From NCBI RefSeq assembly GCF_030013595.1, contig NZ_CP122768.1: a stretch of DNA of 64,000 bases, one strand, 5' to 3'. The stretch comes from Escherichia coli (GTDB lineage: Bacteria; Pseudomonadota; Gammaproteobacteria; Enterobacterales; Enterobacteriaceae). Under the pieces are notes generated by a model. The model had not been told where the DNA came from and made no database searches. It saw nothing but the letters and a program-made list of their open reading frames with translations. This document shows, one piece after another, positions 3,827 to 41,246 of this stretch; within the stretch, counting starts at the first letter, position 1, and each line of letters opens with the position of its first letter. The translations under genes and the position numbers were made by a program.

Positions 3827-4840
3827 TCATTCTGCAGACAACATCAAGCGCAGCCGACCACCGGTTCCCCATATTTGGCATTGCCAGGCATCGCATCGCT
3901 GGCTCAATTGATTCAAATAAGCGTTACCTAAAGTGCCTAACGGAACACCATTACTGATTTGCACCTGGTGTTCGCCGGTATTTAACGTCGCATTCAGCCC
4001 CGCAGAAACCAGAATGAGATTTTTCAGTTCGCGATGATAATAGCCAACTAATAGCGGAAACTGCCCCGGCAGATTGGCCTGACGGAGTAAATGGTTTACC
4101 TGCTTCAATAACGCGCCCAACTCTGGCAACCGTTGATTTTGGTGTGCAAGCTGTTCCTGTAATAATCCGTTAAACAATGCGCGTAATAACAAGGCAGCAA
4201 GTACGCCATTATGTCCAGCTCGGGTGACATCAAGGCAATAAAATGCCAGATCGTTTTCCGAAAGTGCGGCAATATCAAGCACCAGGCCGGGTTTGTCCGC
4301 GGCAACCAATTGACGATAATTAACCCGGCAATGGGAAATCACCTGCTGAACCGGCGGTTGCAATTCCTGTAATAATTTCGCCGCTGCGGCAGGGTTATCA
4401 ACCATTGCATCCCAGTCGCGAAAAAGCCTTTCCTCTTCCTCAACGCGGGAATTAAACATGCTGGGATAGAGACAGGCAAAAACCATCTCGCGCAAGCGAT
4501 TCAGATCTTTAACTGGTTTCAGCAAAACATCTTCAACGCCCAGACGTAACGCTTTGGCAATATCTGCCATATTTTCAGTGGCAGATATCACGAGAACAGG
4601 TGTCTGGTCACCTCTGTTACGTATATGCTCCAGCAGTTTAAGCCCGTTCATTCGTGGCATCGCGATATCACATATCATCAGGTCTGGAGTGAAACCTCCC
4701 AGCAACTCAAGGGCATCCACCCCATCAGCCGCCAGTACCGTTGTCGCTCCCAATGAGGAAAACCACGAATCCAGAAGCGAGCGAAATACCTGCTCATCTT
4801 CAACAATGAGAATCTGTTTTCCGACCAATGGCTGCGTCAT
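3827..4840 (-). CDS. rssB: Response-regulator adaptor for RpoS proteolysis (RssB)
   Basis: 337 aa ORF with N-terminal receiver domain (ILIVEDEQVFR...DLMICDIAMPRMNGL) and PP2C-like C-terminal domain. Confidence 0.94.
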   Translation of the reverse strand: MTQPLVGKQILIVEDEQVFRSLLDSWFSSLGATTVLAADGVDALELLGGFTPDLMICDIAMPRMNGLKLLEHIRNRGDQTPVLVISATENMADIAKALRLGVEDVLLKPVKDLNRLREMVFACLYPSMFNSRVEEEERLFRDWDAMVDNPAAAAKLLQELQPPVQQVISHCRVNYRQLVAADKPGLVLDIAALSENDLAFYCLDVTRAGHNGVLAALLLRALFNGLLQEQLAHQNQRLPELGALLKQVNHLLRQANLPGQFPLLVGYYHRELKNLILVSAGLNATLNTGEHQVQISNGVPLGTLGNAYLNQLSQRCDAWQCQIWGTGGRLRLMLSAE

Positions 4841-4931: not shown

Positions 4932-5837
4932 TCAAATGTTGGTGCGTACCAACGGCAAAAGTTCGTCCATTTTCTTTTCCACTGCCAGCTGCCCAGCCGC
5001 AATGGCAGCGTGCGCGCGATGGAAATCAAGCGTAGATATTTGCGGGCAAACAGGTTGAATCAGAATATCGGGCGGATCACCTGCCATGCGGTTCCTTTTA
5101 AGGCGGTTCTCCAGCACCTGGATAGAAGTGGTCATAATCTCTGTTGCCGTTGGCGCTGTCACCGCCCGACGTGTCGTTATGCTGCCCAACCTTTCTTTCA
5201 GACGCGCATGCCACGGTAGAGAATCACCATTCTCGCTATTTTCTTCACTGACATTAAAGGAGAGCAGATCTTGTTGCATCAAATGAGCATCGTGCTGCAG
5301 GTCGACCGCTATCACAATATCAGCACCCAATGCACGCGTGAGCGAAATAGGAATTGGGTTAACTACAGCGCCATCAACCAGCCAGTAGCCGTTATGCGCA
5401 ACGGGTGCCATTAGTCCTGGAATACTGCATGATGCACGAATAGCAAGATGGAGATCGCCTTCAGTAAACCATAATTCGCGCCCAGTACTTAAATTGGTGG
5501 CAACAGCCGCGAAGCGACGGGAACAATTTTCGATCTCTGTTTCCGGCATTATTTCGCGATATTGATTGAAGACACGCTCGCCGCGCAGTAACCCACCGCG
5601 CTGCCAGGAGAGATCCATCAGGCGTAAAACATCCCAATAACTGAAAGAGGTCACCCAATCTTCCAGCGCAGACAGTCGATCGCATGCATAGGCAGCGCCC
5701 ACCAGCGAACCAATTGAACATCCTGCAACGATATCAATTTCAATACCCACTTTTTTTAGCGCATTAATAACGCCAATATGCGACCAACCTCTCGCCGCGC
5801 CAGATCCCAGCGCCAGCCCTATTTTTATCTTTCTCAT
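4932..5837 (-). CDS. rssA: Patatin-like phospholipase RssA
   Basis: 301 aa ORF; patatin GxSxG/oxyanion motifs (GLALGSGAARGWSHIGV, AGCSIGS). Confidence 0.92.
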   Translation of the reverse strand: MRKIKIGLALGSGAARGWSHIGVINALKKVGIEIDIVAGCSIGSLVGAAYACDRLSALEDWVTSFSYWDVLRLMDLSWQRGGLLRGERVFNQYREIMPETEIENCSRRFAAVATNLSTGRELWFTEGDLHLAIRASCSIPGLMAPVAHNGYWLVDGAVVNPIPISLTRALGADIVIAVDLQHDAHLMQQDLLSFNVSEENSENGDSLPWHARLKERLGSITTRRAVTAPTATEIMTTSIQVLENRLKRNRMAGDPPDILIQPVCPQISTLDFHRAHAAIAAGQLAVEKKMDELLPLVRTNI

Positions 5838-9771: not shown

Positions 9772-11306
9772 GGGTGCGGCTCCGTTTTGCTGGTTACGTC
9801 GATGGCATCGATACGGCGGCTGTTGAACAGATTGAATTTGGTATCTGAACCGTGGCAGCCATCACCAAAGGTAAAGCCGCAGCCATTTTTCTCCGGGAAG
9901 GCTTCCCGCGCCAGTTCACGATGACTGCTCGGCACCACAAAGCGATCTTCGTAGTTAGCAATCGCCAGATAACGGTACATCTCCTGTGCCTGGGCTTCGG
10001 TCAGACCGACCTCTTCCAGCGCACGGGTATCGCCTTTACCGTCAACGGTTTCAGCACGTTTGTAATGACGCATCGCCAGCATACGTTTCAGCGCGCGCAG
10101 TACTGGTTTGGTATCACCGGCGGTCAGCAGATTCGCCAGATACTGTACCGGAATACGCAGACTTTCGACGTCTGGCAGAATGCCGTTGCTGCCCAGTTCA
10201 CCCGCATCTGCCGCAGACTGAATCGGCGACAGAGGCGGCACGTACCAGACCATCGGCAGTGTGCGATATTCCGGATGCAGCGGCAGCGCCAGTTTCCATT
10301 CCATCGCCATTTTATAAACCGGCGACTGCTGTGCGGCTTCAATAACGCTCAGCGGAATACCGTCTTTAATTGCCTGCTCGATGACTTTCGGATCGTTCGG
10401 ATCGAGGAACACCTCCAGCTGACGCTGGTAGAGATCTTTCTCGTTCTCGGTGCTGGCTGCACGTTCAATGGCGTCCGCATCGTACAGCAGCACGCCGAGA
10501 TAACGGATACGACCGACACAGGTTTCAGAGCACACCGTCGGCTGACCCGCTTCAATACGCGGATAGCAGAAGATGCACTTCTCAGACTTACCGCTCTTCC
10601 AGTTGAAGTAGATTTTTTTGTACGGGCATCCGGTGATGCACATACGCCAGCCACGGCATTTATCCTGGTCGATCAGGACGATGCCATCTTCTTCACGCTT
10701 GTAAATCGCACCGCTCGGGCAGGTCGCCACACATGCCGGGTTCAGGCAGTGTTCGCACAGGCGCGGCAAATACATCATGAAGGTGTTTTCGAACTGGCTA
10801 TACATCGCCTTCTGGATGTTGTCGAAGTTCTTGTCTTTCGCCAGCTTGTCAAACTCACCGCCCAGGTCATCTTCCCAGTTCGGCCCTTTTTCGATTTTCG
10901 CCATACGTTCGCCGGTAATCAGCGAACGCGGACGGGCAATCGGCTGCGATTTGCTGCCTTCCGGCGCGGTATGCAGGTTCTGATAATCAAAATCGAACGG
11001 CTCGTAATAATCGTCGATACCCGGCAGATGCGGGTTAGCAAAGATTTTACCCAGCAGCATGGCGCGGTTACCCATGCGCGGCTGCAGTTTGCCGTTGATT
11101 TTACGGATCCAGCCGCCTTTGTATTTTTCCTGGTTTTCCCAGTCAGTCGGGAAGCCCTGGCCCGGCTTGGTTTCCACGTTGTTGAACCACGCGTATTCCA
11201 CGCCTTCGCGGCTGGTCCAGACGTTTTTACAGGTAACTGAACAGGTGTGGCAGCCGATGCACTTATCGAGATTCAGCACCATGCCGACTTGTGAACGAAT
11301 TTTCAT
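9768..11306 (-). CDS. narH: Respiratory nitrate reductase beta subunit (Fe-S)
   Basis: 512 aa ORF with multiple ferredoxin-type Cys clusters (CIGCHTCSVTC, CEHCLNPACVATCP, CRGWRMCITGCPYKK). Confidence 0.97.
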   Translation of the reverse strand: MKIRSQVGMVLNLDKCIGCHTCSVTCKNVWTSREGVEYAWFNNVETKPGQGFPTDWENQEKYKGGWIRKINGKLQPRMGNRAMLLGKIFANPHLPGIDDYYEPFDFDYQNLHTAPEGSKSQPIARPRSLITGERMAKIEKGPNWEDDLGGEFDKLAKDKNFDNIQKAMYSQFENTFMMYLPRLCEHCLNPACVATCPSGAIYKREEDGIVLIDQDKCRGWRMCITGCPYKKIYFNWKSGKSEKCIFCYPRIEAGQPTVCSETCVGRIRYLGVLLYDADAIERAASTENEKDLYQRQLEVFLDPNDPKVIEQAIKDGIPLSVIEAAQQSPVYKMAMEWKLALPLHPEYRTLPMVWYVPPLSPIQSAADAGELGSNGILPDVESLRIPVQYLANLLTAGDTKPVLRALKRMLAMRHYKRAETVDGKGDTRALEEVGLTEAQAQEMYRYLAIANYEDRFVVPSSHRELAREAFPEKNGCGFTFGDGCHGSDTKFNLFNSRRIDAIDVTSKTEPHP

Positions 11307-14300
11307 TTTACGCTCTCCTGTACCTGGTCATTGCCTTCGCCATCTAACCAGTCAATGTTCTTCATCTTACGCACTACAACAAACTCATCGCGGTTAGAAC
11401 CTACGGTGCCGTAGTAGTTAAAGCCGTATGCCAGATGGGCATAGCCGCCGATCATATGCGTCGGTTTCGGCGTGATACGGGTGACCGAGTTATGGATACC
11501 ACCACGCTGTTGGGTAATTTCCGAACCAGGCAGGTTAACGATACGTTCCTGCGCGTGGTACATCATGGTCATCCCTGCCGGAACACGCTGGCTGACAACC
11601 GCACGGGCAGTCAGAGCACCGTTGCGGTTGAAGACTTCAATCCAGTCGTTATCGGCGATACCCAGCTCTTTGGCATCGGCTTCACTCAGCCAGACCACCG
11701 GACCACCGCGACCTAAAGTCAGCATCAGCAGGTTGTCGCTGTAGGTGGAGTGGATACCCCACTTCTGGTGCGGCGTCAGGAAGTTGAGCGCTTTTTCCGG
11801 GTTGCCGTTGGATTTCTGGCCTATCACTTCTTTCACCGAACGGGTGTCGATCGGCGGACGGTAAACCAGCAAGCTTTCACCGAAATCACGCATCCATTGG
11901 TGATCCTGATACAGCTGCTGACGGCCAGAGAGCGTACGCCACGGGATCAGCTCGTGAACGTTGGTGTAACCGGCGTTGTAAGAAACGTGTTCATCTTCAA
12001 GGCCAGACCAGGTCGGGCTGGAGATGATTTTGCGCGGCTGTGCCTGAATATCGCGGAAGCGAATCTTCTCGTCTTCTTTATTCAGCGCCAGATGCGTATG
12101 GTCACGACCGGTAAACTCGCTCAGGGCAGCCCAGGCTTTCACGGCTACCTGACCGTTGGTTTCCGGTGCCAGCGTCAGGATCATCTCTGCCGCATCAATT
12201 GCGGTATTGAGCATCGGCTGACCTTTTGCCGGACCTTCCGCTTTGGTGTAGTTGAGCTTACGCAGCAGATCCATCTCGCTCTGGGTGTTCCAGGCAATCC
12301 CTTTACCGCCGTTACCGATTTTCTCCATCAGCGGGCCGATAGAGGTAAAGCGTTCGTAAGTTGCCGGATAATCGCGCTCTACGACCATAATGTGCGGTGC
12401 AGTTTTACCTGGGATCAGGTCGCATTCGCCTTTTTTCCAGTCTTTCACATCCAGCGGCTGCGCCAGTTCAGCGGCAGAGTCGTGCTGGATAGGCAGCGTG
12501 ACGATGTCAGTTTCTTTACCCAGATGACCAACGCACACTTCGGAGAATTTCTTCGCGATGGCTTTGTAGATTTCCCAGTCGCTTTTCGCTTCCCAGGCCG
12601 GATCGACCGCCGCAGACAGCGGGTGAATAAACGGATGCATATCCGAAGTATTCATGTCGTCTTTTTCGTACCAGGTCGCCGTCGGCAAAATGATGTCGGA
12701 ATAGAGACAGGTGCTCGACAGACGGAAGTCCAGCGTCACCACCAGATCCAGCTTGCCTTCCAGACCGTTGTCCTGCCAGTCCACTTCTTCCGGCTTCACG
12801 CCGCCCTGCTGACCCAGGTCTTTACCCTGGATACCGTGCTCCGTCCCCAGCAGGTACTTGAGCATAAACTCATGACCTTTACCGGAAGAACCGAGCAGGT
12901 TAGAGCGCCAGATGAACAGGTTACGCGGGTGGTTTTTACCGTTTTCTGGTTGTTCTGCCGCAAAACGGATAGAACCCTCTTTCAGGGATTTCACGGTGTA
13001 ATCCACCGGATTCATGCCCGCTTTTTCCGCTTCGCGAGCGATAGTCAGCGGGTTAGTGCCTAACTGCGGCGCAGACGGCAGCCAGCCCATACGTTCTGCA
13101 CGGACGTTAAAGTCGATCAGATGTCCGGTATAACGGGATTTATCCGCCATCGGTGACAGCAACTCTTCCGCCGTGACGGTTTCATAACGCCACTGGCTGG
13201 AGTGGTTATAGAAATAAGAAGTGCTGTTCATGTGACGCGCCGGACGCTGCCAGTCAAGGGCAAACGCCAGCGGCTGCCAGCCGGTTTGCGGACGCAGTTT
13301 TTCCTGACCTACATAGTGCGCCCAGCCGCCCCCGCTCTGACCGACACAGCCGCAGAAAATCAGCATGTTGATCAGACCACGATAGTTCATATCGAGGTGA
13401 TACCAGTGGTTCAGCCCCGCACCGACGATAATCATTGAACGACCGTGGGTTTTATCAGCGTTATCGGCAAATTCACGGGCGATGCGAATAATCTGGCTGC
13501 GAGAAACGCCGGTAATCTGCTCGGCCCAGGCAGGGGTGTAAGCTTTCACATCGTCATAGCTGGTTGCACAATTAACGTCGTTCAGGCCACGTTCCAGACC
13601 GTAGTTTGCCAGCGTCAGATCATAAACGGTGGTCACCAGGGCGGTGCTGCCATCAGCCAGTTGCAGGCGTTTCACCGGCAGTTTGTGCAGCAGCACGTTT
13701 TCCAGTTCCACTTTGTTGAAGTGTTCAGTACCGTCGCCACCAAAGTACGGGAAGCCAACCTCAGCGATCTCATCCTGGCTACCCAGCAGGCTTAGTTGCA
13801 GCTCGGTTTCTTCGCCAGTTTTGCCGTCGCGCTGTTCAAGATTCCATTTGCCCTTCTCGCCCCAGCGGAAGCCGATAGAACCGTTCGGCGCAACCATTTC
13901 GCCATTGGTATTAAAGGCGACAGTTTTCCATTCCGGATTGTTTTCCTGGCCCAGCGCATCCACCAGATCAGCAGCGCGCAGCATACGACCCGCAGCGTAG
14001 TAACCGTCGCGTTCTTCCAGCATCACCAGCATCGGCATGTCGGTGTAGCGACGCACATAGTCGGTGAAATACTGGCTTGGGTTGTCGAGGTGGAATTCAC
14101 GCAGCATTACGTGGCCCATCGCCAGCGCCATTGCCGCATCGGTGCCCTGTTTCGGTGCCAGCCACAGATCGCACAGTTTGGCGATTTCAGCGTAGTCTGG
14201 CGTGACGGCAACAGTTTTGGTGCCTTTGTAACGCACTTCAGTAAAGAAGTGAGCATCCGGGGTACGCGTCTGCGGCACGTTTGAACCCCAGGCGATGATG

Positions 14301-15046
14301 TAGCTGGAGTTGTACCAGTCAGCAGATTCCGGTACGTCAGTCTGCTCGCCCCAGGTTTGCGGAGACGCAGGAGGCAGGTCGCAGTACCAGTCGTAGAAGC
14401 TTAAGCAAGTACCGCCAAGCAGCGAGAGATAGCGCGCACCCGACGCGTAAGAAACCATCGACATTGCCGGAATTGGCGAGAAGCCAGCGACGCGGTCCGG
14501 GCCGTAGTTTTTGATGGTGTAAACGTTAGAGGCGGCGATCAGTTCGTTCACTTCCTGCCAGGAAGAACGAACAAAACCACCGCGTCCACGCGCCTGCTTA
14601 AAGCTTTTCGCTTTATCGGCGTCTTCAATGATAGAAGCCCATGCCTCAACCGGATCGCTATGCAGCGCCTTCGCTTCACGCCACATTTTCATCAGGCGTT
14701 TGCGCATCATTGGGTATTTCAGGCGGTTGGCGCTGTAAAGATACCAGGAGTAGCTGGCACCGCGCGGGCAGCCGCGAGGTTCATGGTTTGGCAGGTCCGG
14801 GCGAGTACGCGGATAGTCAGTCTGCTGGGTTTCCCAGGTCACCAGACCGTTTTTGACGTAGATTTTCCAGCTGCAGGAGCCGGTGCAGTTTACCCCGTGG
14901 GTAGAGCGGACGATTTTGTCATGCTGCCAACGCTGGCGATATCCATCCTCCCAGTCACGGTTGGTATTGAGAAGCTGGCCATGCCCATCGGCAAAGGTTT
15001 CACCCTTCTGTTTGAAGTAGCGAAACCGGTCCAGGAATTTACTCAT
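11303..15046 (-). CDS. narG: Respiratory nitrate reductase alpha subunit (molybdopterin)
   Basis: 1247 aa ORF; N-terminal Fe-S motif HGVNCTGSCSWKIYVKNG, molybdopterin oxidoreductase core; 4-nt overlap with narH. Confidence 0.97.
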   Translation of the reverse strand: MSKFLDRFRYFKQKGETFADGHGQLLNTNRDWEDGYRQRWQHDKIVRSTHGVNCTGSCSWKIYVKNGLVTWETQQTDYPRTRPDLPNHEPRGCPRGASYSWYLYSANRLKYPMMRKRLMKMWREAKALHSDPVEAWASIIEDADKAKSFKQARGRGGFVRSSWQEVNELIAASNVYTIKNYGPDRVAGFSPIPAMSMVSYASGARYLSLLGGTCLSFYDWYCDLPPASPQTWGEQTDVPESADWYNSSYIIAWGSNVPQTRTPDAHFFTEVRYKGTKTVAVTPDYAEIAKLCDLWLAPKQGTDAAMALAMGHVMLREFHLDNPSQYFTDYVRRYTDMPMLVMLEERDGYYAAGRMLRAADLVDALGQENNPEWKTVAFNTNGEMVAPNGSIGFRWGEKGKWNLEQRDGKTGEETELQLSLLGSQDEIAEVGFPYFGGDGTEHFNKVELENVLLHKLPVKRLQLADGSTALVTTVYDLTLANYGLERGLNDVNCATSYDDVKAYTPAWAEQITGVSRSQIIRIAREFADNADKTHGRSMIIVGAGLNHWYHLDMNYRGLINMLIFCGCVGQSGGGWAHYVGQEKLRPQTGWQPLAFALDWQRPARHMNSTSYFYNHSSQWRYETVTAEELLSPMADKSRYTGHLIDFNVRAERMGWLPSAPQLGTNPLTIAREAEKAGMNPVDYTVKSLKEGSIRFAAEQPENGKNHPRNLFIWRSNLLGSSGKGHEFMLKYLLGTEHGIQGKDLGQQGGVKPEEVDWQDNGLEGKLDLVVTLDFRLSSTCLYSDIILPTATWYEKDDMNTSDMHPFIHPLSAAVDPAWEAKSDWEIYKAIAKKFSEVCVGHLGKETDIVTLPIQHDSAAELAQPLDVKDWKKGECDLIPGKTAPHIMVVERDYPATYERFTSIGPLMEKIGNGGKGIAWNTQSEMDLLRKLNYTKAEGPAKGQPMLNTAIDAAEMILTLAPETNGQVAVKAWAALSEFTGRDHTHLALNKEDEKIRFRDIQAQPRKIISSPTWSGLEDEHVSYNAGYTNVHELIPWRTLSGRQQLYQDHQWMRDFGESLLVYRPPIDTRSVKEVIGQKSNGNPEKALNFLTPHQKWGIHSTYSDNLLMLTLGRGGPVVWLSEADAKELGIADNDWIEVFNRNGALTARAVVSQRVPAGMTMMYHAQERIVNLPGSEITQQRGGIHNSVTRITPKPTHMIGGYAHLAYGFNYYGTVGSNRDEFVVVRKMKNIDWLDGEGNDQVQESVK

Positions 15047-15137
15047 CGGTTTTCTCCTGTGGGAGCCTGTCGGCCCTCTGATAAATCGACATTGCTAATG
15101 TTTAAGGGCAAGGTAACGCTCTGAAACAGCGTGAGAA

Positions 15138-15151
15138 TTGATAACGATCAA
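15138..15151. promoter_or_regulatory. FNR binding site in narG promoter
   Basis: Perfect TTGATaacgATCAA palindrome about 92 bp upstream of narG ATG, consistent with a class II (-41.5) FNR site. Confidence 0.75.
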
Positions 15152-15188
15152 GAGTGATGGGGATGAAAAATAAAGTAAATTCCTAAGA

Positions 15189-15195
15189 TACCCCT
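15189..15195. promoter_or_regulatory. NarL heptamer (TACCCCT) upstream of narG
   Basis: Matches TACYYMT NarL consensus; further heptamer-like sequences (aggagta/taccca) near 15280-15310. Confidence 0.4.
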
Positions 15196-15440
15196 TTAGG
15201 ATAATTAACAGCCACCACATAACAGACTGTAAATTAAGACGTTTTATACCTGTAGTTATTTAAACTATTAAGATTTTTATGCAGATGGGTATTAAGGAGT
15301 ATTCCCCATGGGTAACATATTAATGGCTCTTAATGAAATCCGGCGAAATAAGCCACTCACACATAAGTATGTTGTAACTAAACGACAGATAAAAAAAAGC
15401 GCGACACCATGCCGCGCAAAGGATAATCAAATATTAAGAT

Positions 15441-16832
15441 TTATTTTTTAGAATGCCGACCATATACCGCCCAGGTAATCACTACGCAGGCGATATAGAA
15501 AATCAAAAATACTTTCATTGCGCCGACTGGCGAACCCGTTAATGCCAGCGAGCTACCGAACGCTTTCGGGATAAAGAAGCCACCAATCGCGCCAATCGCA
15601 GAGATGAAACCCAGCGCCGCCGCCGTGTCGGTTGCCGCTTCACGCATCGCACGTTCGTCAGAACCCCCTTCTGCTTTCACGCGATCCATTGTCAGTTTAC
15701 GGAAGATCACGGAAATCATCTGGAAAGTGGAACCACTACCCAGCCCAGCTGTCAGGAACAGCGCCAGGAAGACTGCGAAGAACGCCATGAAGCTTCCGCC
15801 CTGCCCGTCAGTCGGTAAGGTCAGGAACAGCAGGCCGCTGAAAATCGCCATCAGAATAAAGTTCACCAGCGTGACACGAGTTCCGCCCAGACGGTCAGAT
15901 AATGCACCACCTGCAGAACGCGCCAGCGCACCAATAAACGGCCCGAAGAAAGCGTATTGCAGAATCTGAACATCCGGGAACTGCGTTTTTGACAGCATCG
16001 CAAAGCCCGCGGAGAAGCCGATGAAGGAGCCGAAGGTTGCCAGATACAGCAGGCTCATAATCCACAGATGACCCCGTTTGAGTACCGGCAACTGCTCCTT
16101 GATGGAGGCTTTCGAGGTAGCAAGATCGTTCATGCCAAACCACGCCGCAATGGTGAAGATGGCAAGGAACGGCACCCATACCCAGGACGCATTCGCCAGA
16201 TACAGCTCACTCCCATCCGGCTGTTTGACACCCTGGCTACCAAATACTGCGAAAATCGACAGTGATACCACCAGCGGAGCAACCAACTGCATGACGCTGA
16301 CGCCCATGTTGCCCAGACCACCATTCAGACCCAGCGCGCCACCCTGCTTCTGTTTCGGAAAGAAGAAGCTGATGTTTGCCATACTGGAAGCGAAGTTCGC
16401 GCCAGCAAAGCCGCACAGCAGAGAGATGATGATGAAGACGCTATAAGGCGTGGAGGTATCCTGCACGGCAAAACCCAGCCAGACGCAAGGAATAATCAGA
16501 ATACCGGTGCTGAACGCCGTCCAGCGACGACCACCGAAGATAGGAACCATAAAGGAGTATGGAACACGTAATAACGCGCCAGAAACCGAAGGCAGCGCAG
16601 TCAACATAAATAGCTGATCTGTCGTAAAATTAAAACCAACTTTTGGTAAGTTCACCGCAACAGCGCTGAACAACATCCATACGCAAAACGCCAGCAGCAG
16701 ACAGGGAACGGAAATCCACAGGTTGCGGCTGGCAATACGTTGACCGCGTTGTTGCCAGAACGCAGGATCTTCCGGTCGCCAATCTGTAATGACAGCTCCA
16801 GTAGCCCTTTCGGGGGCGGATGAGTGACTCAT
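15441..16832 (-). CDS. narK: Nitrate/nitrite transporter (MFS)
   Basis: Polytopic MFS ORF; start chosen at second Met (MSHSSAPERATG) giving 463 aa; ORF track begins two codons earlier at 16838. Confidence 0.92.
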   Translation of the reverse strand: MSHSSAPERATGAVITDWRPEDPAFWQQRGQRIASRNLWISVPCLLLAFCVWMLFSAVAVNLPKVGFNFTTDQLFMLTALPSVSGALLRVPYSFMVPIFGGRRWTAFSTGILIIPCVWLGFAVQDTSTPYSVFIIISLLCGFAGANFASSMANISFFFPKQKQGGALGLNGGLGNMGVSVMQLVAPLVVSLSIFAVFGSQGVKQPDGSELYLANASWVWVPFLAIFTIAAWFGMNDLATSKASIKEQLPVLKRGHLWIMSLLYLATFGSFIGFSAGFAMLSKTQFPDVQILQYAFFGPFIGALARSAGGALSDRLGGTRVTLVNFILMAIFSGLLFLTLPTDGQGGSFMAFFAVFLALFLTAGLGSGSTFQMISVIFRKLTMDRVKAEGGSDERAMREAATDTAAALGFISAIGAIGGFFIPKAFGSSLALTGSPVGAMKVFLIFYIACVVITWAVYGRHSKK

Positions 16833-16891
16833 AGACACCTCTGATACTCGTTTCGATGTCTGCCACCTTAGTGTCTGTAGCTAAAGGCAAT

Positions 16892-16905
16892 TTGATGTAA
16901 ATCAA
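16892..16905. promoter_or_regulatory. Promoter-proximal FNR site of narK
   Basis: TTGATgtaaATCAA perfect FNR palindrome about 60 bp upstream of narK start. Confidence 0.65.
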
Positions 16906-16929
16906 ACGATAAGATAACTTTATCTATCA

Positions 16930-16943
16930 TTGATATTTATCAT
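16930..16943. promoter_or_regulatory. Second (upstream) FNR-like site of narK
   Basis: TTGATatttATCAT, one mismatch to consensus, centre 38 bp from the proximal site (two helical turns apart, as expected for -41.5/-79.5). Confidence 0.5.
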
Positions 16944-17170
16944 TACCCATAGTGAGTACAGTGATTTCATAAAAATTATGAGATTTTTCACGGTGCTGTA
17001 GAATCCCTACCCTTACCGATGTAAAGCGACTAACCACACGGCAAATAAGGAGTAACTCTTTCAGGGTATGGGTATACTTCAGCCAATAGCCGAGAATACT
17101 GCCATTCCAGAATGTATCGTCACATTCATTAAGGTTATTGCTCATTTAAAGCCTGAAGGAAGAGGTTTAC

Positions 17171-18967
17171 ATGCTTAAACGTTGTCTCTCTCCGCTCACC
17201 CTGGTTAATCAGGTTGCGCTTATTGTGTTGCTTTCTACTGCTATTGGACTGGCAGGGATGGCAGTTTCTGGCTGGCTGGTGCAAGGCGTTCAGGGCAGCG
17301 CCCATGCGATCAACAAAGCGGGATCGCTGCGCATGCAAAGTTACCGTCTGTTGGCAGCAGTGCCATTAAGCGAGAAAGACAAGCCCTTAATTAAAGAAAT
17401 GGAACAAACGGCATTTAGCGCCGAGTTAACCCGAGCAGCAGAACGAGACGGACAACTGGCGCAATTACAGGGTTTACAAGATTACTGGCGTAATGAACTG
17501 ATCCCTGCGCTGATGCGTGCACAAAACCGCGAAACGGTGTCAGCGGATGTCAGCCAGTTTGTTGCCGGGCTTGATCAGCTGGTATCTGGTTTTGACCGCA
17601 CCACGGAAATGCGCATTGAGACAGTGGTGCTGGTCCATCGGGTAATGGCGGTATTTATGGCACTTTTACTGGTGTTCACTATTATCTGGTTGCGGGCGCG
17701 ACTGCTACAACCGTGGCGGCAATTGCTGGCAATGGCGAGTGCCGTCAGTCATCGCGATTTTACCCAACGCGCGAACATCAGCGGGCGCAACGAAATGGCG
17801 ATGCTTGGAACTGCGTTGAACAATATGTCTGCAGAACTGGCCGAAAGTTATGCCGTACTTGAGCAGCGGGTTCAGGAGAAAACCGCCGGGCTGGAGCATA
17901 AAAATCAGATCCTCTCTTTTTTATGGCAGGCCAACCGCCGATTGCATTCCCGCGCCCCGCTGTGTGAACGCCTGTCACCTGTACTCAACGGCTTACAGAA
18001 TTTGACCCTGCTACGTGATATTGAACTGCGGGTGTATGACACTGATGATGAAGAGAATCATCAGGAGTTTACCTGCCAGCCAGATATGACTTGTGATGAT
18101 AAAGGCTGCCAGCTCTGCCCGCGCGGCGTATTACCCGTTGGCGATCGCGGCACAACCCTGAAGTGGCGGCTGGCTGACTCTCATACGCAGTACGGTATTT
18201 TGCTGGCGACCCTGCCGCAGGGGCGTCATCTTAGCCATGATCAACAACAACTGGTGGATACCCTGGTTGAACAACTCACCGCCACGCTGGCGTTGGATCG
18301 CCATCAGGAACGTCAGCAACAGTTGATCGTGATGGAAGAGCGTGCCACCATTGCGCGCGAACTGCATGATTCTATTGCCCAATCTCTCTCTTGCATGAAG
18401 ATGCAGGTGAGTTGTTTACAGATGCAGGGCGATGCGCTGCCAGAAAGCAGCCGCGATCTGTTGAGTCAGATCCGTAACGAACTGAATGCATCCTGGGCGC
18501 AGTTGCGTGAATTGCTCACCACATTCCGTTTGCAGCTCACCGAGCCTGGATTACGTCCGGCGCTGGAGGCGAGTTGCGAAGAGTACAGCGCCAAATTTGG
18601 CTTCCCGGTGAAGCTGGATTATCAATTGCCGCCTCGTCTGGTGCCTTCGCATCAGGCAATCCACTTGTTGCAAATTGCCCGTGAGGCATTAAGTAACGCC
18701 CTCAAACATTCGCAAGCGAGTGAGGTCGTGGTGACGGTGGCGCAAAACGATAATCAGGTCAAACTGACCGTCCTGGATAACGGCTGCGGCGTGCCTGAAA
18801 ATGCCATCCGCAGCAATCACTACGGCATGATAATAATGCGCGACCGTGCGCAAAGTTTACGAGGCGATTGCCGCGTCCGCCGTCGTGAATCAGGTGGCAC
18901 CGAAGTGGTTGTCACCTTTATTCCCGAAAAAACTTTCACAGACGTCCAAGGAGATACCCATGAGTAA
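17171..18967 (+). CDS. narX: Nitrate/nitrite sensor histidine kinase
   Basis: 598 aa; two TM segments flanking periplasmic P-box, HAMP, H-box ([18 protein letters not shown]) and HATPase domain. Confidence 0.97.
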
Positions 18968-19610
18968 TCAGGAACCGGCTACTATCCTGCTGATCGACGA
19001 TCACCCGATGCTGCGAACTGGCGTAAAACAGCTTATCAGTATGGCACCAGATATCACCGTGGTTGGCGAAGCGAGTAATGGCGAACAGGGTATTGAACTG
19101 GCGGAATCTCTTGATCCCGATCTGATCCTGTTAGATCTCAATATGCCCGGCATGAATGGTCTGGAAACGCTGGATAAACTGCGCGAAAAGTCCCTCTCCG
19201 GGCGCATTGTGGTATTCAGCGTTTCTAACCATGAAGAAGATGTGGTCACCGCACTGAAACGCGGCGCGGATGGCTATCTGTTAAAAGATATGGAACCGGA
19301 AGATCTGCTGAAAGCATTGCATCAGGCTGCTGCTGGCGAAATGGTATTAAGCGAAGCATTAACGCCTGTTCTGGCCGCCAGCTTGCGCGCTAACCGTGCC
19401 ACTACTGAGCGCGATGTTAACCAGTTAACCCCACGCGAGCGCGATATTCTCAAGCTGATTGCCCAGGGTTTGCCGAACAAGATGATTGCCCGCCGCCTGG
19501 ATATCACCGAAAGCACAGTAAAAGTGCACGTCAAGCACATGCTGAAGAAAATGAAGCTCAAGTCTCGCGTGGAAGCAGCAGTATGGGTGCATCAGGAGCG
19601 CATTTTCTGA
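18960..19610 (+). CDS. narL: Nitrate/nitrite response regulator
   Basis: ATG at 18960 gives 216 aa ([21 protein letters not shown]...), receiver plus LuxR-type HTH; overlaps narX stop by 8 nt; ORF-track start 18846 is an upstream extension. Confidence 0.95.
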
Positions 19611-36326: not shown

Positions 36327-36442
36327 GTCGTTGTCTGCGGCATTTTTGCCGAGTGCCGTGTATAATAGGCAAAGTTATTTCCATTTCTGCAATCTGTTAG
36401 CAATAACAGGTTGATTATTAAGATATTAAGGTGATTTAAATC

Positions 36443-37534
36443 ATGGGATTCAAATGCGGTATCGTCGGTTTGCCCAACGTCGGGAAATCTACCCTGTTCA
36501 ACGCGCTGACCAAAGCCGGTATTGAAGCGGCCAACTTTCCATTCTGCACCATTGAGCCGAACACAGGCGTCGTACCAATGCCTGACCCTCGCCTGGATCA
36601 ACTGGCTGAAATCGTAAAACCGCAGCGTACGCTTCCCACGACCATGGAATTTGTCGATATCGCCGGTCTGGTAAAAGGCGCATCGAAAGGCGAAGGTCTG
36701 GGTAACCAGTTCCTGACTAACATCCGTGAAACCGAAGCGATCGGTCACGTTGTTCGCTGCTTTGAAAATGACAACATCATTCACGTTTCCGGCAAAGTTA
36801 ACCCGGCGGATGATATTGAAGTTATCAACACCGAACTGGCGCTGGCGGACCTCGACACCTGCGAACGTGCGATTCATCGCGTACAGAAGAAAGCCAAAGG
36901 TGGCGATAAAGACGCGAAAGCCGAGCTGGCGGTACTGGAAAAATGCCTGCCGCAGCTGGAAAACGCAGGTATGCTGCGCGCGCTGGATTTAAGCGCTGAA
37001 GAGAAAGCGGCTATTCGTTACCTGAGCTTCCTGACGCTGAAACCAACAATGTACATCGCCAACGTCAACGAAGACGGTTTTGAAAACAACCCGTATCTTG
37101 ACCAGGTGCGTGAAATCGCGGCGAAAGAAGGTTCTGTTGTGGTTCCGGTTTGTGCTGCTGTTGAAGCAGACATTGCCGAACTGGACGACGAAGAACGTGA
37201 CGAGTTTATGCAGGAGCTTGGGCTGGAAGAGCCGGGCCTGAACCGTGTGATCCGTGCCGGTTATAAGCTGCTGAACCTGCAAACTTACTTCACCGCTGGG
37301 GTGAAAGAAGTACGTGCATGGACCATTCCGGTTGGTGCAACCGCGCCGCAGGCCGCTGGCAAAATCCATACTGATTTTGAAAAAGGCTTTATCCGTGCAC
37401 AAACTATTTCGTTCGAAGATTTCATCACTTACAAAGGTGAACAAGGCGCGAAAGAAGCAGGCAAAATGCGTGCAGAAGGCAAAGATTACATCGTTAAAGA
37501 TGGCGATGTAATGAACTTCCTGTTCAATGTCTAA
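36443..37534 (+). CDS. ychF: Ribosome-binding ATPase YchF (Obg-family GTPase)
   Basis: 363 aa; P-loop [15 protein letters not shown] domain at C-terminus. Confidence 0.97.
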
Positions 37535-38378: not shown

Positions 38379-41246
38379 ATGGGCATCAAACAACACAATG
38401 GGAATACCAAAGCCGATCGTCTCGCTGAATTAAAAATCCGTTCGCCCTCAATTCAACTGATAAAATATGGCGCTATTGGTTTGAATGCAATTATCTTTTC
38501 CCCCCTGCTGATAGCTGCTGATTTAGGAAGTCAAAATGGCACCAATATTACTATTAGTGATGGTGACAGAATTACAGGAGATACCGCCGATCCATCAGGA
38601 AACCTCTATGGTGTAATGACCCCAGCAGGAAACACGCCTGGCAATATCAACCTGGGTAATGATGTCACCGTCAATGTCAACGACGCCTCTGGATATGCAA
38701 AGGGAATCATTATTCAGGGCAATAACAGCTCCCTGACAGCTAACCGACTTACAGTAGATGTTGTTGGTCAAACCTCTGCCATCGGCATTAATTTAATTGG
38801 TGACTATACCCATGCTGACTTAGGCACAGGCAGCACCATTAAGAGTAACGATGACGGCATCATTATTGGACATAGCTCAACACTAACAGCCACTCAATTC
38901 ACCATTGAAAACTCGAACGGTATAGGCCTAACCATCAATGACTATGGCACCAGTGTCGATCTTGGAAGCGGAAGTAAAATCAAGACCGATGGAAGTACAG
39001 GTGTTTATATCGGTGGTCTCAACGGCAATAACGCCAATGGTGCTGCGCGTTTTACGGCGACAGACCTGACAATCGATGTTCAGGGCTATAGCGCCATGGG
39101 AATAAACGTACAGAAAAACTCTGTTGTCGATCTCGGAACAAACAGTTCCATTACAACCAATGGCGATAATGCACACGGCCTCTGGAGCTTTGGCCAGGTG
39201 AGCGCGAATGCACTCACTGTTGATGTAACTGGAGCCGCGGCAAATGGCGTCGAAGTTCGTGGTGGTACAACCACTATCGGTGCTGATAGCCATATTTCTT
39301 CCGCGCAGGGCGGTGGCCTCGTAACCAGTGGTTCAGACGCGACAATCAATTTTTCTGGCACGGCAGCGCAACGAAACAGCATCTTTTCCAGCGGTTCTTA
39401 TGGTGCCTCAGCCCAGACGGCAACGGCTGTTATCAACATGCAAAATACCGATATTACGGTTGATCGTAATGGCAGTCTGGCGCTGGGTTTGTGGGCGCTC
39501 AGCGGCGGTAGAATAACCGGAGACAGTTTGGCTATCACCGGCGCGGCAGGAGCCAGGGGAATTTATGCTATGACCAACAGCCAGATCGACCTCACGAGCG
39601 ATCTGGTCATTGATATGAGTACACCCGACCAGATGGCCATTGCAACGCAACATGACGATGGTTATGCCGCCAGCCGCATCAACGCCTCGGGTCGTATGCT
39701 TATCAACGGTAGCGTTCTTTCCAAAGGTGGGCTAATCAATCTGGATATGCACCCCGGGTCGGTTTGGACAGGTTCTTCCCTCAGCGATAATGTCAATGGC
39801 GGGAAACTGGACGTTGCAATGAATAACAGCGTCTGGAACGTAATAAGTAATTCTAATCTCGACACGCTGGCGCTGAGCCATTCAACTGTCGATTTTGCCA
39901 GCCACACGTCAACTGCCGGCACATTTACCACATTAAACGTAGAGAACCTGAGCGGTAACAGTACCTTTATTATGCGTGCTGATGTTGTTGGCGAGGGTAA
40001 TGGCGTTAATAATAAAGGGGATTTATTGAATATCAGCGGGAGTAGTGCTGGTAATCACGTATTGGCTATCCGTAACCAGAGCAGCGAGGCCACAACGGGA
40101 AATGAAGTTCTGACTGTGGTAAAAACCACTGACGGCGCGGCCTCGTTCAGCGCGTCTTCTCAGGTTGAGTTGGGAGGATATCTGTATGATGTGCGTAAAA
40201 ATGGCACTAACTGGGAGCTTTATGCTTCCGGGACAATTCCGGCGCCGACTCCTAATCCTGAGCCCACACCAGCTCCCGCTCAGCCCCCCATAGTCAACCC
40301 CGATCCTACGCCTAACCCCACTCCCACACCTAAACCCACCACGACCGCAGATGCTGGCGGCAATTATCTCAATGTCGGTTACTTATTAAACTATGTTGAA
40401 AACCGTACGCTGATGCAACGGATGGGTGACCTGCGAAATCAGAGTAAAGACGGAAATATCTGGCTGCGCAGTTATGGGGGAAGTCTGGACTCCTTCGCCA
40501 GTGGCAAACTGAGCGGCTTTGACATGGGTTACAGCGGTATCCAGTTTGGTGGGGATAAACGTCTCTCTGATGTAATGCCGTTGTATGTCGGTCTGTATAT
40601 TGGCTCAACACATGCATCGCCGGACTATAGCGGAGGCGACGGTACCGCACGTTCAGACTACATGGGAATGTACGCCAGTTACATGGCACACAGCGGTTTT
40701 TACAGCGATCTCGTTGTAAAAGCATCACGCCAGAAAAATAGTTTCCACGTACTGGACAGTCAGAACAACGGCGTTAATGCCAACGGCACTGCGAATGGAA
40801 TGAGTATCGCCCTGGAAGCCGGGCAGAGGTTCAACCTGACCCCTACTGGTTATGGGTTCTATATAGAGCCGCAAACCCAGCTCACATACAGCCACCAGAA
40901 TGAGATGGCTATGAAGGCGAGTAATGGCCTCAATATACATCTGAATCACTACGAATCGCTGCTGGGGCGTGCCAGCATGATACTGGGATATGACATCACC
41001 GCAGGCAACAGCCAGCTGAATGTCTATGTGAAGACTGGCGCTATCCGCGAGTTTTCAGGGGATACCGAATATCTGTTGAACAACTCCCGGGAGAAGTACA
41101 GTTTCAAAGGTAATGGCTGGAATAACGGCGTGGGAGTCAGTGCACAGTATAACAAACAGCACACATTCTATCTCGAAGCGGATTACACGCAGGGTAACCT
41201 CTTTGATCAGAAGCAAGTCAACGGAGGATATCGCTTCAGCTTTTAA
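38379..41246 (+). CDS. ycgV: Autotransporter adhesin-like protein YcgV
   Basis: 955 aa; Gly/Thr/Asn-rich repetitive passenger, Pro-rich linker (PAPTPNPEPTPAPAQPPIVNPDPTPNPTPTPKPTT) and C-terminal beta-barrel ending in aromatic residue (RFSF). Confidence 0.9.
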   Translation: MGIKQHNGNTKADRLAELKIRSPSIQLIKYGAIGLNAIIFSPLLIAADLGSQNGTNITISDGDRITGDTADPSGNLYGVMTPAGNTPGNINLGNDVTVNVNDASGYAKGIIIQGNNSSLTANRLTVDVVGQTSAIGINLIGDYTHADLGTGSTIKSNDDGIIIGHSSTLTATQFTIENSNGIGLTINDYGTSVDLGSGSKIKTDGSTGVYIGGLNGNNANGAARFTATDLTIDVQGYSAMGINVQKNSVVDLGTNSSITTNGDNAHGLWSFGQVSANALTVDVTGAAANGVEVRGGTTTIGADSHISSAQGGGLVTSGSDATINFSGTAAQRNSIFSSGSYGASAQTATAVINMQNTDITVDRNGSLALGLWALSGGRITGDSLAITGAAGARGIYAMTNSQIDLTSDLVIDMSTPDQMAIATQHDDGYAASRINASGRMLINGSVLSKGGLINLDMHPGSVWTGSSLSDNVNGGKLDVAMNNSVWNVISNSNLDTLALSHSTVDFASHTSTAGTFTTLNVENLSGNSTFIMRADVVGEGNGVNNKGDLLNISGSSAGNHVLAIRNQSSEATTGNEVLTVVKTTDGAASFSASSQVELGGYLYDVRKNGTNWELYASGTIPAPTPNPEPTPAPAQPPIVNPDPTPNPTPTPKPTTTADAGGNYLNVGYLLNYVENRTLMQRMGDLRNQSKDGNIWLRSYGGSLDSFASGKLSGFDMGYSGIQFGGDKRLSDVMPLYVGLYIGSTHASPDYSGGDGTARSDYMGMYASYMAHSGFYSDLVVKASRQKNSFHVLDSQNNGVNANGTANGMSIALEAGQRFNLTPTGYGFYIEPQTQLTYSHQNEMAMKASNGLNIHLNHYESLLGRASMILGYDITAGNSQLNVYVKTGAIREFSGDTEYLLNNSREKYSFKGNGWNNGVGVSAQYNKQHTFYLEADYTQGNLFDQKQVNGGYRFSF

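Follow-up and report, generated by a model that had tools for sequence, protein, structure and literature searches.

The narK promoter of Escherichia coli is already known, and is a textbook example of co-activation by FNR and NarL. In strain K-12 this promoter, narKp1, was reportedly described in 1992 by Kolesnikow and colleagues and by Bonnefoy and DeMoss, and is said to be catalogued in EcoCyc and RegulonDB. In Table 1 of Myers 2013 (PMC3688515), narK is directly activated by FNR and its best site is at -41.5, as counted from EcoCyc/Kim transcription starts; the study also places narK in its FNR-activated list and gives 0.068 as the ratio of aerobic to anaerobic expression. A ChIP-chip peak at narX/narK was reported by Grainger 2006. 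In published data from Salmonella, fnr mutants and narL mutants lose the narK transcript, and Li et al. 1994 indicate in their title that NarL binds in vitro to the control region of narK.

The described systems closest to narK are yfiD, nirB and narG. Like narK, yfiD has a strong class II FNR site together with a weaker upstream FNR site (-40.5 and -93.5), and its upstream FNR dimer modulates (suppresses) activation. The nirB promoter shares the FNR core of narK, TTGATTTACATCAA, at -41.5 and with an identical score of 17.06 on the matrix described below, and is likewise co-activated by NarL. Canonical NarL sites consist of two heptamers with a 2-bp spacing (7-2-7), and nirB has a single 7-2-7 NarL/NarP site at -69.5, which counteracts repression by Fis and IHF; narK, unlike nirB, has heptamers spaced by 1 bp around -94 and a further cluster far upstream. 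The narG promoter resembles narK in its perfect FNR site at -41.5 and in a NarL cluster ~200 bp upstream, and the two are co-regulated; nitrate induction of narG is IHF-dependent, according to the literature. However, narG has no second FNR-like site, and its FNR core scores lower than that of narK (14.78 compared with 17.06).

Set beside these systems, the promoter analyzed here is the same locus as K-12 narKp1, with the transcription start 25 nt from the ATG, FNR at -41.5 and nothing material different. The narK region is very probably just this known class II FNR-dependent, NarL-co-activated sigma70 promoter, in which a second, distal FNR-like site is at most auxiliary or modulatory.

The narK-narX locus

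The window, meaning the whole 64-kb stretch of E. coli DNA that was analyzed, contains narG and narK on one strand and, divergent from them, narX followed by narL, a gene order taken from the annotation of strain 042 and K-12. Of 5426 complete E. coli genomes, 5415-5416 match a 1.4-kb query around narK/narX, with identities of 95-99.9% and with narK and narX annotated. Plasmid-labelled records make up 13 of the ~5420 narK-narX matching places in complete E. coli assemblies, which one would not expect of a core respiratory gene region; they could reflect large chromids, replicons with the wrong label or genuine transfer. The narK/narX spacer differs from that of K-12 at 3 of 338 positions (16965, 17001 and 17063), none of them in the FNR sites, the NarL heptamers or the -10 hexamer. 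The occupancy and expression data cited here come from K-12, to which the window strain is identical at both FNR sites. The coordinates of the features are collected in the accompanying table.

Table. Features of the narG-narK-narX-narL region, in window coordinates; negative positions are relative to the narK transcription start unless stated otherwise.
Feature	Position	Strand	Remarks
narG	11303-15046	minus	start at 15046; ORF list
narG FNR site TTGATAACGATCAA	15138-15151		perfect TTGATnnnnATCAA; score 14.78; listed at -41.5 by Myers 2013 (PMC3688515)
narG NarL heptamers, three exact	15285-15314		~-185, -195 and -208 from the start implied by the narG FNR site
narK CDS, nitrate/nitrite antiporter	15441-16832	minus	ATG at 16832; ORF list and RefSeq annotation of near-identical genomes
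narK/narX intergenic spacer	16833-17170		between narK (minus) and narX (plus)
narK Shine-Dalgarno AGAGG	16838-16842	minus	
narK transcription start (A)	16857	minus	Mendoza-Vargas 2009 start mapped onto the window
narK -10 hexamer TAAGGT	16865-16870	minus	-13 to -8; TAATGT or TAAGGT in most orthologs examined
Proximal FNR site TTGATGTAAATCAA, narK sense TTGATTTACATCAA	16892-16905	minus	0 mismatches to TTGATnnnnATCAA
Distal FNR-like site TTGATATTTATCAT, narK sense ATGATAAATATCAA	16930-16943	minus	1 mismatch to the FNR consensus
Inverted NarL-type heptamers TACCCAT-A-GTGAGTA	16944-16958		~-90 and -98
narX -10-like hexamer CATAGT	16948-16953	plus	right distance from a candidate narX start
narX -10-like hexamer TACAGT	16957-16962	plus	right distance from a candidate narX start
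Candidate narX transcription starts	16960 and 16969	plus	5' UTRs of 211 and 202 nt; low read counts
Conserved block CGTGAAAAAYCWCA (narK sense)	16979-16992		~-122 to -135; followed by a T-tract; kept in all aligned genera
NarL heptamer TACTCCT	17048-17054	minus	~-194; exact TACYYMT
NarL heptamer TACCCAT	17068-17074	minus	~-214; exact TACYYMT
narX CDS, nitrate sensor kinase	17171-18967	plus	ATG at 17171; ORF list and RefSeq annotation
narL	18960-19610	plus	after narX

On the other side of narK, K-12 carries a 121-bp element directly 3' of the narK stop codon (positions 4350-4470 of the K-12 locus L002, corresponding to ~15440 in the window). The element is absent from the window and from strain 042, where the narK-narG spacer measures 394 bp as against 515 bp in K-12. 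It resembles an ERIC/IRU-type repeat and falls inside the K-12 annotation of the 'narS' sRNA, and thus the length of the narK 3' UTR or NarS precursor varies by strain. An Rfam scan of 14900-17400 returned a single sub-threshold chance match, to the L20 leader (26.6 bits, with a gathering score of 58.7).

The FNR site at -41.5

The narK transcription start in the supplement of Mendoza-Vargas 2009 (PMC2760140) is 25 nt 5' of the ATG, has 6 reads and equals the known narKp1. The centre of the proximal FNR site (16898.5) is 66.5 nt upstream of the ATG, and with the start at -25 this places the proximal site at -41.5, the class II activator position, and the distal site at -79.5. A first-pass annotation of this DNA had called 16839-17170, in effect the narK/narX spacer, the narK promoter and had assigned two FNR sites to these same two positions. 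That much was borne out: the mapped start lies inside the narK/narX spacer, both 14-mers are exactly at the places claimed for them, with 0 and 1 mismatch, and both promoter positions follow from comparison with the start at 16857. Start mapping that put neither site at a class II position had been named as the evidence that would tell against the annotation, and the mapping puts the proximal site at exactly -41.5.

Sites were scored with the FNR matrix of Myers 2013, rebuilt by regression on Table S6 of that study as a symmetric additive matrix from ~180 14-mers with PatSer scores. The largest residual was 0.005, so that the rebuilt matrix is effectively the Myers matrix; the published precision-recall cut-off is an ln p of -10.75, or a score of ~12.17. 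The proximal site scores 17.06, which is near the maximum (the highest score in the table is 17.25), and entry 1277107 of Table S6 (PMC3688515) has the same sequence and the same score. In random 332-bp sequence of the same composition, a site scoring at least 17.06 occurs with P ~5e-5, and the proximal site is therefore far beyond chance.

The core promoter has a usable -10 hexamer, TAAGGT, and a -35 element that is weak or absent. A generic -35/-10 scan found no full sigma70 consensus at the narK promoter, and the generic sigma70 scan was uninformative (1 match, with 1.1 expected). By every testable measure, the proximal site is a class II FNR site.

Phylogenetic comparison points the same way. 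A NarK scan of the genome collection gave at least 80 loci, and ~40 of the matches listed are narK orthologs (at least 83% identity); the remaining listed loci are mostly relatives of ~58-78% identity, probably narU-type paralogs, together with more distant homologs. The spacers of E. fergusonii, E. marmotae, E. ruysiae and Salmonella lie outside the compared set. A perfect TTGATnnnnATCAA is found in all ~40 listed enterobacterial narK orthologs, 64.5-68.5 nt 5' of the ATG (nominal distances are greater for loci whose protein match starts 3' of the start codon), and most aligned orthologs keep the block (C)TAAKGT at -10 as well as the Shine-Dalgarno sequence.

For most of the NarK relatives of ~70-77% identity (loci L042-L072, probably narU-type paralogs), the 450 bp upstream contain no FNR consensus with two or fewer mismatches. 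Clear exceptions are L045 and L070, each with a perfect consensus, and a few other relatives have 2-mismatch matches.

NarL heptamers and other upstream elements

The inverted heptamer pair at 16944-16958 abuts the distal FNR-like site. One heptamer (16944-16950) is an exact TACYYMT and its inverted partner (16952-16958) is a 6/7 match; the block TACYCAY-N-WWGGRTA is conserved across the aligned genera, with 0 mismatches in E. albertii. The 1-bp spacing of the pair (7-1-7) is the same in the other aligned genera. Farther upstream, the heptamers at -194 and -214 are within the most conserved block of the spacer, in which GTATACCCATACC...TTACYCCTT is nearly invariant across genera.

Between these two sets of heptamers is the conserved block at 16979-16992. 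The sigma70 ChIP-seq peak of Myers 2013 (PMC3688515), 1,277,023-31, maps to window positions 16981-16989, on this block. The block has no good fit to the IHF, Fur, FNR or NarL consensus, and it may be a region of bending by IHF or Fis. A scan for the IHF consensus WATCAANNNNTTR gave a sole 8/9 match at narK, at 16900-16912, which overlaps the proximal FNR site and is not convincing.

These elements suggest how the promoter would operate. Under anaerobiosis, a [4Fe-4S]-FNR dimer would bind the proximal site at -41.5, by the established class II FNR mechanism, and would recruit and activate RNA polymerase at a promoter with a usable -10 and no good -35. In the presence of nitrate, phospho-NarL would presumably bind the heptamers at ~-90/-98 and -194/-214, and bending by IHF or Fis at the conserved region from -120 to -135 could bring the far-upstream NarL close. 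Sequence, start site, FNR occupancy of the region in vivo, dependence of expression on FNR and conservation are direct observations, made here or taken from published data. The NarL and bending steps are inferred from the heptamer matches, their conservation, the parallel layout of narG and the cited literature; the narG promoter in the window has the textbook narG architecture.

The distal FNR-like site

There are rival readings of the distal 14-mer. It may be a fortuitous near-match with no FNR function, the constraint on it coming from NarL, IHF/Fis or promoter geometry. Alternatively, narK may be a true tandem-FNR promoter, in which a second dimer at -79.5 would tune narK in vivo, either through contact with alpha-CTD or by damping of the yfiD kind; that the distal site is a single mismatch from the consensus speaks for this second dimer.

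The first-pass annotation had proposed a PWM scan as a check on its two FNR sites, and the scan upheld the proximal site but not the distal one. At 11.90 the distal site is a near miss, just under the cut-off, which explains why Table S6 of Myers 2013 (PMC3688515) lacks it and has a single narX/narK entry, and why Table 1 gives narK "1" FNR site. Likewise, the proximal site is the only FNR site predicted by Mendoza-Vargas 2009 (PMC2760140). The sub-threshold score favors a fortuitous match, and both published site counts weigh against a second dimer. On the other hand, a site scoring at least 11.9 is expected in random 332-bp sequence of the same composition with P ~0.02, and within +/-60 bp of the main site with P ~0.007. 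A match by chance is unlikely, although the case is less clear-cut than for the proximal site, and this chance of ~1-2% counts for tandem binding and against the fortuitous match. The 64-kb window as a whole has 6 positions scoring at least 11.9, namely the two narK sites, the narG site and three others (36431-36444, 41203-41216 and 54141-54154, with rebuilt-matrix scores of 12.03-12.93), and the existence of these three makes a fortuitous match easier to accept.

Spacing is a second consideration. The centres of the two sites, 16898.5 and 16936.5, are 38 bp apart, as had been annotated. The accompanying description of this distance as two helical turns was mistaken, however: 38/10.5 amounts to 3.6 turns, which is non-integral, and dimers bound to the two sites would lie on different sides of the helix. 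There was also no basis for calling the distance the one expected of tandem FNR dimers, since the other tandem pairs in Table S6 of Myers 2013 (PMC3688515) are 53 bp (yfiD), 52 bp (cydA) and 45 bp (ompW) apart. The yfiD sites, at ~5 turns, are on the same face and both score over the threshold (17.25 and 13.87), whereas narK has 3.6 turns and a distal site below it; still, yfiD, nrdDG, cydA and ompW are precedents for FNR acting in tandem. Upstream FNR is said, in work by Wing and colleagues from 1995, to activate best at ~-61.5, -71.5, -82.5 and -92.5, and -79.5 is not among these optima, which together with the different faces detracts from the case for a second dimer. Barnard and colleagues reportedly found in 2003 that upstream FNR can help a promoter with FNR at -41.5 or, near -85/-95, repress it. 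A tandem arrangement at narK is correct in its geometry and unproven in its function.

We take it that RegulonDB and EcoCyc annotate FNR at both -41.5 and -79.5 for narKp. Such a curated -79.5 site would argue for a second dimer and against a fortuitous match, and if this annotation holds, the first-pass annotation amounts to database knowledge and not to a discovery. Full-text literature searches found no description of a -79.5 narK site, and the supplements of Federowicz 2014 and Ravcheev 2007 had no narK site data.

Occupancy data might be expected to favor one site over the other. The FNR ChIP-seq peak of Myers 2013 (PMC3688515) in K-12, at 1,277,080-82 (U00096.2), maps to window positions ~16930-16932; the proximal site is under this peak, but the peak centre falls on the distal and not the proximal site, as tandem binding would have it. 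However, the same tables yield 63 site/peak pairs, and for these the absolute offset has a median of 23.5 bp and is 33 bp or more in 44%. With offsets this large the peak centre cannot separate the proximal site from the distal one, and the peak position was therefore rejected as proof of distal occupancy. The same study (PMC3688515) reported IHF ChIP-chip enrichment over the narK region, which is consistent with a 14-mer constrained for reasons other than FNR.

Conservation of the distal site

Among the listed orthologs, the distal 14-mer (two or fewer mismatches) is found in E. coli and E. albertii only and is absent from ~35 other promoters. The corresponding stretch of Citrobacter, Klebsiella/Raoultella, Enterobacter, Kluyvera, Kosakonia and others consists of a T-tract, and the right half-site is missing from it. 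The left half, ATGAT or ATGAC, is partly conserved across genera within the NarL block, but the right half, ATCAA, is not. In Escherichia sp. MOD1-EC7003, 3 substitutions destroy both half-sites (ATGAT to ATAAT and ATCAA to ATTCA). The absence from every non-Escherichia ortholog among those listed and the loss in one Escherichia lineage argue against a tandem promoter and fit a fortuitous match, as does the position of the 14-mer next to a cross-genus NarL pair with which its left half, but not its right half, is partly conserved.

The comparison within Escherichia gives a mixed result. Between E. albertii and the window, 39 of the 338 spacer positions differ, yet 0 of the 51 positions in 16909-16959 do, where ~6 differences are expected (P ~0.003). 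This absence of substitutions indicates that the Escherichia-specific segment is constrained, for which FNR need not be the reason. The perfect conservation of the distal site in E. albertii, inside this 51-bp patch, is evidence for a second dimer and against a fortuitous match, and because of the constraint on the segment the site could matter more than a weak auxiliary would. Across E. coli, 4235 of 5417 records show no difference over the 86 bp that contain both sites; in the variants inspected, the changes fall in a NarL heptamer or in the central spacer within the proximal site, and the distal site is intact.

The part of the Escherichia-specific segment between the proximal FNR site and the NarL pair (16906-16943) contains an imperfect 13-bp tandem repeat, AATGATAAATATC and AATGATAGATAAA, as well as a short palindrome, AGATAA-AG-TTATCT. 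The right half of the distal site is at the junction of the repeats, which suggests that the site originated by a small duplication. The narK gene responds to iron, and the GATAAT-like repeats of the segment were considered as a Fur box; this candidate was rejected: the window has no sequence with 3 or fewer mismatches to a Fur box, and in the best 25 hits listed from the Fur scan there is none of 13/19 or better and none in the spacer.

The putative divergent narX promoter

The first-pass annotation had also assigned divergent narX expression to this spacer, a claim that is consistent with two low-count narX-strand starts in Table S1 of Kim 2012 (PMC3415461), at 1,277,043 (3 reads) and 1,277,052 (2 reads). 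The flanking 51-mers given there match the window sequence. The same table has many low-count intragenic starts, and the narX starts are weakly supported.

The distal 14-mer might serve narX and not narK, in that bound FNR would occlude RNA polymerase and lower anaerobic narXL expression, or the 14-mer might simply be part of the narX core promoter. The geometry is suggestive: the centre of the site is at -32.5 and -23.5 from the candidate starts at 16969 and 16960 (33 and 24 bp away), TACAGT and CATAGT are at the correct -10 distance from those starts, and the sigma70 peak at 16981-16989 adjoins them and is ~125 bp from the narK start. If so, the distal site would overlap the core of a weak divergent narX promoter, in an Escherichia segment where comparison of E. 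coli with E. albertii points to constraint; the inverted NarL heptamers overlap both candidate narX -10 hexamers as well. However, the starts have only 2-3 reads in a data set rich in such intragenic starts, narX is not among the FNR-dependent operons in Table S8 of Myers 2013 (PMC3688515), and the searchable literature gave no experimental link between FNR and narXL. TTGATA within the distal site was rejected as a narX -35, its spacing to the -10 candidates (12 or 21 bp) being wrong.

Assessment and implications

Taken together, the data favor the class II promoter with FNR at -41.5 set out at the beginning, and within it the distal site is best seen as an evolutionarily recent, weak FNR-like sequence that is dispensable for the basic FNR logic and at most auxiliary. 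That it is a fortuitous near-match is quite possible, although short of probable. Tandem binding at -41.5 and -79.5 can be entertained as well, on the doubtful side, and a role in narX expression is unlikely; these last two are not mutually exclusive. Very unlikely is a combination in which the distal site is shared by the divergent promoters, so that anaerobic FNR would down-tune narXL while activating narK, as an Escherichia-only gain lost in at least one cryptic lineage.

The added value of the analysis of the distal site is modest. The often-listed -79.5 site is sub-threshold, lineage-specific and off-phase, and it overlaps a putative narX core promoter; for these reasons it should not be taken as an established site of FNR function until it has been tested directly. 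If the narX starts of Kim 2012 are real, the 202-211-nt narX leader includes the conserved -194/-214 NarL block, which would then be a narK DNA element and a transcribed narX leader at once. The cross-genus footprint, for its part, pinpoints the upstream blocks that are under long-term constraint, namely the NarL heptamers and the GTGAAAAAYCWCA box.
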